The notes: a model not told the origin generated them from the letters alone. A stretch of 64,000 nucleotides of DNA from Candidatus Obscuribacteraceae bacterium (GCA_044226015.1 JBGAHS010000011.1:32001-96000); one strand, 5' to 3'. Positions 21,912 to 25,777 are shown, counted from the stretch's first letter. Made by a program: numbers and translations.

Positions 21912-22811
21912 TTACTTCTTCGGCGGGAGGTAAGCACGGAAGTATTTCTCTTCCTTGTAGCGGCCAAAACGATCATCTAAACCTTCTTTACGCCATGTTC
22001 CACCATAATTGTCGTAGACCATTCGTTTGCCATTTTCGATACCGCCTACGATACCAACATGGCGCGTTGTCGTACCGGGATTTTGTCCCTCGATAATGTC
22101 GCCTTCTTTGACTTCACTGGCGTTTATTTCTTTCATCAATCTCTTCGAAGGGTCAGAACTATTCAGCCCCATGGCTTTGTTCATCTCAGTCATGTTTACC
22201 TGATAGAGTTCTTTATAGGCACTATCTTCGGTGCTATTAATTCGCCCGGACATTTTCAATGTTTCTCGATAACGATTACTAAACGAGGAGACACATCCCA
22301 GTTCTGGTGGGGGAACCGGCAACATGGACTTAGCCCACTTAGGCAGTTTATAGATGGACTGATTTACTACTGCGTCGGCGGATTTCAGCAAAAGCGCGTT
22401 GGCTTCTTCTAGTTCTTCTGGATTGTCTTTAGCTTTTTCGCCAGCATCTTTAACTTCTCCGTTCTTCAGATCACCCGGTTTTGATTCGCCAGACTTCCCA
22501 TCGGATTTGGGATCCTCATGCTTGTCATTTCCCTTGGGATCTGGTTTTGCATCACGTGAATTCTGGTCCACCTTCGAGTCAGCAGATGGCTTTGAATCAG
22601 CTTTTGCAGGCTCATCGGATTTTGCATCCTTCTTGTTATCGAGACCTTCAATAGTAAGATTTGTGAGCTGCGTGCCTTTAAGTTCGGCATTTCGGGGCTC
22701 AACTTTCGAATTGCTCTGCCACTGCTCTGCGGAAAGCTCAGCAGCAGAATTGCGGCCTTTATCACCTTCAGCAGCGACTTTATCGCTTGTATGTTTATTT
22801 TCCAGACCCAT
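21912..22811 (-). CDS. NlpC/P60- or CHAP-like cysteine hydrolase domain protein with disordered N-terminus
   Basis: LGCVSSF ... EGDII ... RHVGIV ... VYDN Cys/His pattern; GGAGGA places the start at 22811 (or 22820), not 23093. Confidence 0.6.
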   Translation of the reverse strand: MGLENKHTSDKVAAEGDKGRNSAAELSAEQWQSNSKVEPRNAELKGTQLTNLTIEGLDNKKDAKSDEPAKADSKPSADSKVDQNSRDAKPDPKGNDKHEDPKSDGKSGESKPGDLKNGEVKDAGEKAKDNPEELEEANALLLKSADAVVNQSIYKLPKWAKSMLPVPPPELGCVSSFSNRYRETLKMSGRINSTEDSAYKELYQVNMTEMNKAMGLNSSDPSKRLMKEINASEVKEGDIIEGQNPGTTTRHVGIVGGIENGKRMVYDNYGGTWRKEGLDDRFGRYKEEKYFRAYLPPKK

Positions 22812-22929: not shown

Positions 22930-22958
22930 TTGACAGACATACATTTGTATGGTATATT
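22930..22958 (+). promoter_or_regulatory. Near-consensus sigma70 promoter with a palindromic operator in the spacer
   Basis: TTGACA-N17-TATATT; CATACA-TT-TGTATG at 22938-22951. Confidence 0.7.
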
Positions 22959-22963
22959 ATATG

Positions 22964-23210
22964 TGATCGCTCTGGCTGAACTAAGCGTAGCGATCAATTC
23001 TGGGTCAGGCAAAAGCGGATCTGGAAGCGGGAGCCGGCGTGTATCGCGAAAGCGATGCTTGTCCGGGGATGGCAGCCCCCTCTCGCGTTCCATAGGGTCC
23101 GCTAGAAGAGCAGGCTAATTTCCGGCCGGCCGGCTGAAATGTAGAAATCGAAGTTGCACCCGGAAAGCGAGAGCGCAGCGATAGCGCATGGAGATATCTA
23201 GCGCTGGGCG
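22964..23210 (+). ncRNA. Putative structured non-coding RNA, family unidentified
   Basis: GC-rich intergenic stretch just after the promoter; nested stems with G-U pairs and GAAA/GAUA tetraloops. Confidence 0.55.
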
Positions 23211-23287
23211 ATTCACCGATAGCAAAAACAATAAACACTTAGTCGCCGGCAAAGCTGCTGAATTAACGAGAGCACCAAGCAGGTGAA

Positions 23288-25777
23288 CTAGGAAACGAAT
23301 CTGCCGCTGGCTCTGTCGAATTTCTTAGCATCAGATGGAAGAGCGACGCGATTTCCAGACTCATCCACGAGCACAGAGAACTGATCCGTAGACGCTGCTG
23401 CATCAGTAGAAGCTTCTGGCTTGTAAAGCTTCTTCTTAATCGTTAGTGAGACCAATTTGCCGTTTTCATAACGAGCTGAATTAACATCGTTTGAACTTGG
23501 ATAACGGTAAACTTGCGTCTCATTTCCGCTTTCAGTTGTAACACCGGTAGCATCAATGCGAACAGTTAGACCTGCCTTGTCATTGCGTCCAGTCAAAACC
23601 ATTTCGCCATCAGGACCGAGATTTGAAGCAGCGGCCCAACTGTTAGCGTCGTAAGTGACACCATCAGCTCCCAATATGCCGTTTTCAATTTGGGTCCAAG
23701 CTAGCTGACCTGGATTTGCCGAAACACCCATGTACTTGCCTTCGGCATTGCTTACACGCCAGTATTTGTCTCCACCGGCTTTAACACTTGTACTTCCGTT
23801 TCTCGGATTGTATACGGTCTGAAGTTCCTTTCCATCGGTACCCTTGGTCACTGCCAGTACTGAACTATCATCTAATACCTTCAGTTCTGATACGCCATTT
23901 TCACCAACCTTCAGGGTGCTTAGAGCGCCATCTTTGCCAGGAATCTGTACAGCCTTAGCGACTGGTTTCGGAGGATTGCTACCATCGCTGCCAATGCTAG
24001 CGACAACGCCATTCGGCAAGTAATAGTCACGCAGTCCAGTTGATGTCTTGTCTTGAATGACTGAACCATCCGTCAGAATTTCTACTTTACCTTCAGTGGA
24101 ATTCAGGGTGATGTCTCTTCCTGCGCGGTTGAACCTGAAGGTAGATTCTTTTGTTGCTTTATCGAAAGTCTCGATTACATTACCTGCGTGCTCTGACACC
24201 ATGGTGCTTCCCAAGTCGCGGTAACGGTCTTGTCCAGGTGACTCGTATGTCACATAGGTCTTACCTGGACCACCACTAGTTTCCATGCGAACGGTACCAT
24301 CTGCGGTGACGTTCAAGTTCATGCGCATTACATTGCCGGTGGAGTCAACGAATGTGTTGTAATCAATCGTGTCTTCTATGCTTCTTGGTGGGAGGTCAGA
24401 TGGAGAGCCAGGAGAATTGAGCCCGTGGCTTGAGCGCCAGCGTTCCATACCCGGATAAAGCTCGCGGCCCTGACGAGTCATGACTTGAGTTACTTGATTG
24501 CCTGTTTGATCAGCGTAGGTATGTTGAGCTCGATAAATGTCGCCATTTACGTCTCTCTGGAATTGCCAGGTTCCACGAGGACCAGTGATGCTGGTGACAT
24601 AACCATCTGGATCTTTCTCGACTACGGTGTTGTCTTGACGGTAGGTGGTCATCGATCCATCAGAATGCTGGACAGCTGTGATCGGTTCACCTGGTCGTGG
24701 TTCCTTGTATGTGTAGGTCACATCGCCTGGTCTGGGTTTGTCATTTTCGGTTTGAGTAGCCTGAACGTAGTCAGCACCATTAAAGTACGTGGTGTCTCGT
24801 TGTTCAGGCGGTCCTGGATTTATTCTTACTCTGGAATTAGTGCGAAAATCGCAATCATATTGAATTCCCTGGTTGAACTGAATGCTTGCTTTGTCGACGC
24901 CGCTGCCTAGTTCACGCTTCATGAAGTCTGGCTTTGCTGCATCAGCCGGAACGAACTTGATGCGACCATCAGCCTGGACTTCACCATTGCGATACTCATA
25001 GCCATCCCAATAATCAGACTTAACCTGACCATCTGGACTCATGACGGTGCGCTTCCATGTTCCCAGGTCTACAGCTTGAACAGTGCCATCTGCTCTGCGA
25101 AGATACTCAACACGGTCTGGTCCTTTGCTAGGAACATATTTGATGTCGCCGTTAGCGCGGAAATTCAGGTCACCTTGAACCGATCCATCTGGATTGATGC
25201 GAACTGGAATTCCTTCGAAATTTATTTTGCCATCTTGCGGCATATATTTCCCTGTGGCGCTCATGACCTTCAGGGCGCCATTTGCATCTCTGGCTAGTTC
25301 GATGCTTCCAGATCCATCAGGACTGTTGTAAGCGATTTTTTCAGCACGACCGTCCAGCCTGGTGGACAGTTGATAGTCGTTGCTTCCCAGGCGGAAAGCC
25401 TGCTGCATGATGGAATCGATCACAGGAGCAACGATTTGTTCTGCAACCGGTGCTGGAGGAATAACTTGATCTAGAACCGGACCAATTTGTGTGCGATTGC
25501 CCAGCAAACGAGCAACATTGTCCATCGCATTTATAGCGACGGAGTCGGCTAAGTTTGGTGCTGGACGAAACGGATTTGCATGACCATCGATAACCAATGG
25601 AGCAAGTTGATACTCTCCCGCTGTGCGCTCGACAGTGGTCTTAGCAGGGTCTGTCGTTGAGCGGACATCGCTCAAGAACTGCTCGTTCAAACTTGCATTT
25701 TCTTGCCTTGTGTCGCGAGCATCATCAGTGGTCTTCGCGACTTCTTGCTTTAAAGATTTTTGTTCTGTTCCAGCCAT
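23288..25777 (-). CDS. Large beta-hairpin-repeat hypothetical protein
   Basis: 829 aa, many xDG/NG turns, no Sec signal. Confidence 0.7.
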   Translation of the reverse strand: MAGTEQKSLKQEVAKTTDDARDTRQENASLNEQFLSDVRSTTDPAKTTVERTAGEYQLAPLVIDGHANPFRPAPNLADSVAINAMDNVARLLGNRTQIGPVLDQVIPPAPVAEQIVAPVIDSIMQQAFRLGSNDYQLSTRLDGRAEKIAYNSPDGSGSIELARDANGALKVMSATGKYMPQDGKINFEGIPVRINPDGSVQGDLNFRANGDIKYVPSKGPDRVEYLRRADGTVQAVDLGTWKRTVMSPDGQVKSDYWDGYEYRNGEVQADGRIKFVPADAAKPDFMKRELGSGVDKASIQFNQGIQYDCDFRTNSRVRINPGPPEQRDTTYFNGADYVQATQTENDKPRPGDVTYTYKEPRPGEPITAVQHSDGSMTTYRQDNTVVEKDPDGYVTSITGPRGTWQFQRDVNGDIYRAQHTYADQTGNQVTQVMTRQGRELYPGMERWRSSHGLNSPGSPSDLPPRSIEDTIDYNTFVDSTGNVMRMNLNVTADGTVRMETSGGPGKTYVTYESPGQDRYRDLGSTMVSEHAGNVIETFDKATKESTFRFNRAGRDITLNSTEGKVEILTDGSVIQDKTSTGLRDYYLPNGVVASIGSDGSNPPKPVAKAVQIPGKDGALSTLKVGENGVSELKVLDDSSVLAVTKGTDGKELQTVYNPRNGSTSVKAGGDKYWRVSNAEGKYMGVSANPGQLAWTQIENGILGADGVTYDANSWAAASNLGPDGEMVLTGRNDKAGLTVRIDATGVTTESGNETQVYRYPSSNDVNSARYENGKLVSLTIKKKLYKPEASTDAAASTDQFSVLVDESGNRVALPSDAKKFDRASGRFVS

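Follow-up and report, generated by a model that had tools for sequence, protein, structure and literature searches.

Multi-copy families of bacterial small RNAs, with one regulator for each family, are exemplified by Qrr1-5 with LuxO, the csRNAs with CiaR and LhrC1-5 with LisR. raiA, OLE, ROOL and GOLLD are orphan classes of structured non-coding RNA, all of them contained in Rfam. Control of non-coding RNAs by LexA has also been reported: DinR of Klebsiella pneumoniae is a LexA-controlled, trans-acting sRNA derived from a 3'-UTR (PMC10907235), IstR-2/tisAB of E. coli is a LexA-controlled non-coding RNA locus (PMC2577331), and LexA-bound sRNA genes are described for M. tuberculosis (PMC3381160). 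As far as the cited account goes, the known LexA-controlled RNAs are few and simple: antitoxin or toxin transcripts, and one sRNA derived from a 3'-UTR (PMC10907235). The LexA box, as given in PMC3091678, reads AGTACWNWTGTACT in Cyanobacteria and CGAACN4GTTCG in B. subtilis.

The window analysed here is the whole stretch of 64,000 nucleotides introduced above; the genome from which it comes measures 8.19 Mb in 13 contigs and is 92% complete. Candidatus Obscuribacteraceae, the family in question, is taken here to be a member of the non-photosynthetic sister group of Cyanobacteria. Within the window, a gap of 476 nt between two genes of the - strand holds an island, which an earlier note had read as an unassigned, highly structured RNA, encoded on the strand opposite to both flanking genes and located behind a near-perfect sigma70 promoter. 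The island is indeed GC-rich, as had been noted: its GC content is 0.595 in 23000-23199, versus about 0.44-0.47 in the surrounding sequence. Both neighbours lie on the - strand, and the elements of the locus, the RNA itself excepted, are the following:

21912-22811, - strand: upstream-side neighbour, 299 aa, no Pfam match.
22930-22935, + strand: -35 hexamer TTGACA; the first five bases, TTGAC, are shared by 21 of the 23 family promoters.
22938-22951, no strand assigned: 14-bp palindrome CATACATTTGTATG, predicted LexA operator, in the promoter spacer between -35 and -10.
22950-22958, + strand: extended -10 element, made of TG, one base and TATATT (TATATT at 22953-22958).
23288-25777, - strand: downstream-side neighbour, 829 aa, no Pfam match.

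Many of the neighbours of the other RNA copies are likewise without annotation.

The promoter is of the sigma70 type and its description as near-perfect holds: TTGACA, a 17-nt spacer and TATATT agree with the consensus at 11 out of 12 positions, with the addition of a TG extension just upstream of the -10 element. The same signals are found throughout the family of homologous loci described below. The two exceptions to the -35 element, among the 23 family promoters, are L109 (TTGAT) and L042 (TGGAC), while GTATGG followed by YAnnnT is invariant in all but one of them (22 out of 23; the exception, C1, features ATATGG). The combined pattern TTGAC-N10-14-GTATGGYA occurs 9 times in the 8.2 Mb genome, and all 9 occurrences are located at copies of the RNA.

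The island is almost certainly a real, structured RNA gene, as indicated by covariation. The alignment used, which is fitted to the model and consists of 22 sequences related to each other, includes 38 modelled pairs: 93.0% of the cells are paired, versus 43-57% after the 3' partners had been shifted by 1-3 columns. Changes on both sides are found in 23 of the 38 pairs, and none of 500 shuffles reached any of five covariation measures. In many pairs A-U or G-C alternates with G-U, as for example in columns 31/147 (UA 11, UG 10); this alternation fits an RNA encoded on the + (promoter) strand only, and the strand had been proposed earlier on the same grounds, from G-U pairs. The folding energy of the + strand is better than that of shuffled sequences (z = -2.12; 1 out of 100 shuffles folds equally well); for the - strand it is no better (z = -0.10; 40 out of 100). 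The proposal of an undescribed + strand non-coding RNA behind a real promoter is strengthened by these 22 homologues and their covariation.

When the whole window was searched against Rfam 15 at gathering level no match was obtained, in agreement with the reported absence of the hallmark non-coding RNA families. In E-value mode, the window copy and all 10 copies of the genome gave only matches at chance level (E > 1), none of them common to the copies. A literature search on non-coding RNA in Obscuribacter, Melainabacteria and Vampirovibrionia returned no relevant paper, and on this account the RNA family is called undescribed; judged by its sequences, to which no Rfam 15 model corresponds, it appears to be so. 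Y RNAs were considered separately and rejected: the Ro/TROVE domain (PF05731) was not found in the 92%-complete genome, and no Y RNA model matches.

The conserved fold consists of a 5' hairpin, followed by a three-way-junction core with about 38 base pairs and two branch points. The conserved part of the RNA is about 170 nt long, the core about 140 nt. In the window copy the elements are located as follows:

22965-22995, + strand: P1, the 5' hairpin, beginning approximately at the predicted transcription start.
23000-23005, + strand: CTGGGT, which may pair as 5' strand with 23120-23125 to close the core.
23015-23033, + strand: 5' strands of H1, H2 and H3 (GCGGATCT, GGAA, GCGGGAG), from the covariation model.
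23036-23064, + strand: H4, variable hairpin (loop GAAA in the window copy); double changes in 12 of 13 pairs.
23065-23079, + strand: H5, a GGGG-loop-CCCC hairpin with loop ATGGCAG; 98.9% paired.
23080-23102, + strand: 3' strands of H3, H2 and H1 (CTCTCGC, TTCC, GGGTCCGC), from the covariation model.
23103-23113, + strand: conserved unpaired junction TAGAAGAGCAG, after invariant CCGC, from the alignments.
23120-23133, + strand: TT, then the palindrome CCGGCCGGCCGG; end of family-wide conservation, the covariance model match stopping at 23134.
23135-23287, + strand: non-conserved downstream stretch, with no conservation past the palindrome.

P1 is predicted in all 23 sequences, with free energies ranging from -10.6 to -31.0 kcal/mol, and its sequence is variable between copies. 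H1 (23015-22/23095-102) is paired in 92.6% of the cells and hardly varies; H3 is paired in 99.4%, with double changes in six of its seven pairs; H5 (GGGG/CCCC at 23065-68/23076-79) is nearly invariant in the 22 sequences. H4 is considered dispensable, since one copy, found in a second genus (L157, see below), does not contain it. A helix of 4-6 bp, where CYGG(AU) would pair with CCGG of the palindrome, may possibly close the core (23000-05/23120-25); the support is weak, with 74.6% of the cells paired and double changes in two of the six pairs. A pseudoknot joining the loop of H5 to the 5' junction, looked for by eye in the alignment, is inconsistent between species. The stretch 23135-23287 of the window copy contains the copy-specific ACCCGGAA (23158-65), a hairpin at 23183-23205 and a 32-codon ORF at 23188-23286. 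A canonical terminator was found within 160 nt in only 2 of the 23 loci, the window copy not being one of them.

Most of the stems previously read by eye correspond to helices of the covariation model: 22964-71/22989-96 is P1, 23014-21/23096-103 is H1, shifted by one base, 23022-33/23080-92 is H2 plus H3, and 23041-58 is the tip of hairpin H4. The near-invariant GGGG/CCCC hairpin had, instead, been overlooked. The two other proposed stems, 22998-23005/23158-65 and the hairpin at 23183-23205, do exist in the window copy but fall outside the conserved part; in the other copies, the 5' strand of the former would find its partner in the invariant CCGG adjacent to 23120-25.

The genome contains exactly 10 copies of the RNA, as determined by BLAST and by the covariance model, with model scores between 111 and 148 bits. 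Common to all of them are the promoter, the variable 5' hairpin, the core of about 140 nt and the invariant CCGGCCGG, which forms the core of the palindrome. The identity between the cores of different copies ranges from 60 to 94%, with a median of 67%. A high copy number, of the REP/MITE kind, had been indicated by the earlier note as an argument against its own reading. The number is in fact high (10), but the copies do not resemble REP/MITE elements, which were accordingly rejected as an explanation: each copy carries its own full promoter, core identity is that just given, the differences are compensatory and no terminal repeats were seen by eye.

Among congeners, the covariance model finds six copies in genome G007 and four in genome G002, and none in the other five genomes (G001 and G003-G006), so that the RNA is present in 3 out of 8 genomes of the genus. 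Outside the genus, 29 genera of the family gave no copy with a first model and stricter filters, and a second one, based on 22 sequences, recognised a single copy, weak at 34.5 bits, in G025, which belongs to a second genus (L157:1501-1610; G025:C24:49844-49953). This copy, devoid of H4 and with a T-run after it, retains the LexA-box promoter, a long P1, H1-H3 and H5, and represents the RNA in a natural minimal form. None of 150 further genomes, sampled from the class, contains the RNA. A strict pattern, which catches about half of the known copies and therefore gives lower bounds, matched 53 loci in genome contigs (one genome per species), 5 of which are true according to the covariance model, all in G002 and G007, and 55 loci in metagenome contigs, 2 of which are true. 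The sequencing runs where the RNA sequence is found are DNA runs from bioreactor, sludge and wastewater metagenomes; no RNA run is listed.

Copies in different species occupy non-orthologous positions. Those of G002 and G007 sit between genes whose orthologues in G000, the genome of the window, have no copy between or beside them; when a filled G002 site was aligned to its empty G000 counterpart, the two were too diverged for the ends of the element to be defined.

The genes surrounding the copies were compared by annotation and all against all. At the 23 loci no neighbour family recurs, with the exception of Ser/Thr kinases, found at 3 loci; this recurrence is treated as due to chance, because such kinases are hugely expanded in the genome. 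The kinases that flank RNA loci are at L048:2-1330, L023:1954-3375 and L026:4238-6004; proteins of this type are often fused to TPR, and one query has about 80 tblastx-matching places in G000. Small ORFs were searched on both strands (12-80 codons, ATG start), and none is common to the 23 loci. By the same scan a type I toxin-antitoxin transcript (compare tisB, dinQ, symE) was rejected: no ATG-started small ORF is conserved. Directly upstream of the promoter of the C11 copy, tandem repeats of about 33 nt (...GCCGCCCC.CCCATGGTTCCGGT.C.GAATC...) were observed; the run of repeats, at L010:310-361 and L002:1301-1903, is crossed by a 155-aa ORF with no Pfam match.

The palindrome found in the promoter spacer, CATAC-N4-GTATG, is also present in the promoters of lexA, where it reads CATACGTAAGTATA, of imuA-imuB-dnaE2 and of ssb. 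In the perfect form it occurs 11 times in the genome: 7 occurrences are at RNA promoters, and the remaining 4 comprise the ssb promoter, the imuA promoter, one intergenic site flanked by unannotated genes and one site within an ORF. Sites are kept in relatives: the block GATACTATACTTACGTATGTG precedes lexA unchanged in 5 out of 5 relatives, from two genera, the flanks being different, and in the imuA promoter TTGACnAAC-CATAC-N4-GTATG is kept in 5 out of 5 relatives, while N4 varies. Conserved half-sites around a varying centre are the footprint that would be expected for the site of a dimeric repressor. The imuA operon codes for a RecA-like protein of 320 aa, a Y-family (IMS) protein of 590 aa and a DnaE-type polymerase of 1273 aa and, by these predicted products, is the imuA-imuB-dnaE2 cassette, a classical LexA target. 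Because the same palindrome is located at the lexA, imuA-imuB-dnaE2 and ssb promoters, with sites kept in relatives, it is read as the predicted LexA box of the lineage, and LexA control of the RNA is considered quite probable. As regards membership of the SOS regulon, the predicted operator of the lineage is found within the promoter of the RNA, which, given such a site, is likely to be switched on by DNA damage.

Boxes within the 23 RNA promoters are perfect in 14 cases, with one mismatch in 5, two in 3 and three in 1; in the 4 promoters with two or three mismatches, these fall in the left half-site. Since the right half-site and the extended -10 (TRTG-like) element overlap, an operator gains no independent support from the conservation of the box at RNA promoters. 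The shorter ATAC-N4-GTAT, taken without the flanking bases, is not enriched (49 sites, versus 39-93 for other 8-base inverted-repeat patterns).

Boxes with one mismatch are located 20-99 nt upstream of the genes for Ku, for the small subunit of ribonucleotide reductase (nrdB) and for a DinG-like helicase; another one is at the start of an ORF for a PD-(D/E)XK nuclease. The predicted SOS regulon includes lexA, ssb, imuA-imuB-dnaE2, Ku, nrdB, the DinG-like helicase and the PD-(D/E)XK nuclease, and its loci are L162 (G000:C1:696502-699687), L158, L168, L174, L175, L178 and L189; the gene for LexA itself is located at G000:C1:697528-698214. The RNA family is predicted to be the largest single block of this regulon. 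For recA (L163) no box was found in about 250 nt upstream of the start codon, so that the regulon is not a textbook one.

Two further boxes were observed, at L161 (G000:C9:318000-319200, about 656-669) and at L167 (G000:C8:631600-634600, about 1297-1310); one of the two is perfect, the other has a single mismatch. Both lie in gaps of 400-500 nt, the genes on either side matching neither Pfam nor NCBIfam, and might point to additional SOS-controlled transcripts or to uncharacterised SOS proteins. The unannotated genes with LexA boxes received no name from NCBIfam. Two of these genes were considered as partners of the RNA, and neither matches its phyletic pattern; L176 is found only in G000, and L177 is a widespread family.

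The explanation favoured here, to which as a whole we assign somewhat less than an even chance, is that of a stand-alone structured non-coding RNA gene, repressed by LexA, induced by damage and acting in trans by binding a protein. In undamaged cells LexA would sit on the box, at about -29 to -16, between the -35 and -10 elements, thus blocking RNA polymerase at a near-optimal promoter. Upon DNA damage, self-cleavage of LexA, stimulated by RecA, would free ten strong promoters simultaneously, and these would flood the cell with a stable, compact RNA. The invariant core would then act in trans by offering a binding platform, more likely to a protein than to a small ligand, making the RNA a damage-induced ribonucleoprotein or a sequestering RNA, rather than a base-pairing or a cis-acting element. 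The binding platform is suggested by a core which is invariant and branched, while peripheral hairpins vary, and by the lack of a cis target or seed; action in trans is suggested by the lack of a recurring neighbour family, save for the expanded kinases (3 of 23 loci), and of a conserved ORF. Protein binding in trans is the weakest step of the explanation, and is put forward tentatively, with the doubts outweighing the confidence.

The same promoter logic would apply to a family of SOS-induced base-pairing sRNAs, where the junction CCGC-UAGAAGnGCWG, or a C-rich strand, would be the seed repressing mRNAs, for example those of cell-division genes. A precedent is available in DinR, LexA-controlled and acting in trans on ftsZ in Klebsiella (PMC10907235), and one junction of 11 nt is conserved across species. 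However, the known sRNAs composed of a seed and a hairpin are far simpler than a core of 140 nt in which about 38 pairs are conserved and the junctions are invariant; conservation between species does not extend to the other unpaired junction; and a canonical terminator is featured by only 2 of 23 loci. The 10-mer complementary to the junction is found 20 times in the genome, 9 of which at the RNA genes, and the other 11 compare with about 16 expected by chance. Base pairing is, on these grounds, held to be unlikely. With no terminator found in 21 of the 23 loci, read-through is possible, as would suit a cis-acting element: a riboswitch or leader for the downstream sequence, including the 32-codon ORF (23188-23286), or the 5' domain of an antisense transcript running into a convergent neighbour. 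A three-way junction with invariant junction bases resembles an aptamer, and the next downstream gene is convergent in 7 of the 10 copies of the genome, a figure close, however, to the 5 out of 10 expected by chance. Co-oriented downstream genes are found in only 3 of these 10 copies, 150-600 nt away and with unrelated functions; the loci have no downstream gene family, ORF or peptide in common, and no known riboswitch or aptamer class of Rfam matches. The leader of the 32-codon ORF, an alternative raised by the earlier note, is not supported, no ATG-started ORF being conserved among the 23 loci, and a cis-acting element in general is very improbable.

A dispersed accessory or selfish DNA element, riding the SOS response, could also account for several features: a unit made of promoter and structured segment would be duplicated or mobilised to new places, and the fold, perhaps in the form of single-stranded DNA, might benefit the element and not the host. 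Consistent with this are a patchy occurrence (in the genus, 3 genomes out of 8; in a second genus, a single weak copy; in the class sample, 0 out of 150), the G002 and G007 copies lying between genes whose G000 orthologues are without a copy, and the presence of lineage-specific subfamilies, such as four G007 copies with near-identical P1. Yet neither terminal inverted repeats nor target duplications were seen, by eye, at the ends of the unit, no transposase, reverse transcriptase or recombinase is near the copies, and collections of phages and plasmids contain no match to the RNA. Moreover, the copies are old (median core identity 67%) and still retain pairing and the full promoter; with compensatory changes, this argues for selection on a transcript, and the reading as a selfish or accessory element is rated as distinctly unlikely. 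The earlier note had itself suggested a divergent 6S-like RNA, which would bind the RNA polymerase holoenzyme, as a rod with a large bubble. A global brake on transcription after DNA damage would be biologically sensible; the size is similar (conserved part of about 170 nt), a large internal loop is present between the weak closing helix and H1, and RF00013 finds no 6S RNA in the genome (E up to 0.01), so that no competing 6S gene speaks against such a role. This last absence means little, and may reflect low sensitivity, because the same search missed 9 out of 14 control genomes. The rod itself is contradicted by the fold: in 23 out of 23 sequences the 5' end is locked in its own hairpin and not paired with the 3' end, the core is branched at a three-way junction, and the closing helix, of 4-6 bp, is poorly supported (74.6% paired). 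RF00013 does not match the region or any of the 10 copies even at E up to 10, and 6S RNA is not known to occur in ten copies. A 6S-like role would thus be extremely improbable.

Each of the ten genes to which this complex covarying fold is amplified has a near-perfect promoter and, within it, a predicted LexA operator; together they account for 7 of the 11 perfect predicted boxes. If the predicted control is true, the SOS response in a little-known sister group of Cyanobacteria invests mainly in RNA, and includes a so far unexplored RNA-based layer of the response to DNA damage. A stronger claim, namely that the ten-gene RNA family is the dominant SOS output by number and belongs to a new class, be it a damage-induced ribonucleoprotein, a ligand sensor or a ribozyme, that serves damage tolerance in a way not described for any bacterium, is speculative and rather unlikely to hold in full. 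The scope is restricted by the narrow, patchy distribution and by the uncultured state of the organisms; within it, the analysis yields a LexA-box consensus for Obscuribacteraceae, a predicted core regulon and the covariance model of a new RNA family. As judged from the sequences compared, what appears to be new is the RNA family, since SOS-controlled non-coding RNAs as such were already known; its biochemical role may well be new too.

The predicted box can be compared to the LexA boxes of Cyanobacteria and B. subtilis, as they are given in PMC3091678. Shared features are the 14-bp palindrome with 5-4-5 geometry, the TAC-N4-GTA core and the location of sites at lexA and at repair genes (PMC3091678). 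The predicted half-site is instead CATAC, versus AGTAC in Cyanobacteria and CGAAC in B. subtilis (PMC3091678), and the predicted regulon differs in that recA is without a site.

As for the RNA itself, 6S RNA (RF00013) is similar in length and likewise features a strong promoter of its own and an internal loop; the Obscuribacteraceae RNA, in contrast, is branched and not rod-like, has a 5' end that does not pair with the 3' end, occurs in ten copies and is not matched by the 6S model. Qrr, csRNA and LhrC families provide the closest parallel in genomic arrangement, being composed of scattered paralogous RNA genes whose promoters carry a site for the same regulator and whose RNAs have a conserved core. 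Their RNAs, however, are of about 100 nt or less, folded into simple hairpins, with a single-stranded seed and a terminator, whereas the RNA described here is larger and branched, with no clear seed or terminator. With raiA, OLE, ROOL and GOLLD it shares a stand-alone, complex, covarying fold, invariant junction nucleotides and the lack of a known biochemical role; unlike them, it has no match in Rfam 15, is much more narrowly distributed, is multi-copy and has an identifiable, although predicted, regulatory input. DinR, IstR-2/tisAB and the M. tuberculosis RNAs share with it an operator of the SOS repressor in or at the promoter of a non-coding RNA, predicted in the present case. These LexA-controlled RNAs are single-copy, and are either Hfq-type sRNAs derived from 3'-UTRs or parts of toxin-antitoxin systems. 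The Obscuribacteraceae RNA, with no toxin ORF and no sequence relation to any of them, differs in being encoded by ten stand-alone genes, each featuring a branched, covarying core of about 140 nt.
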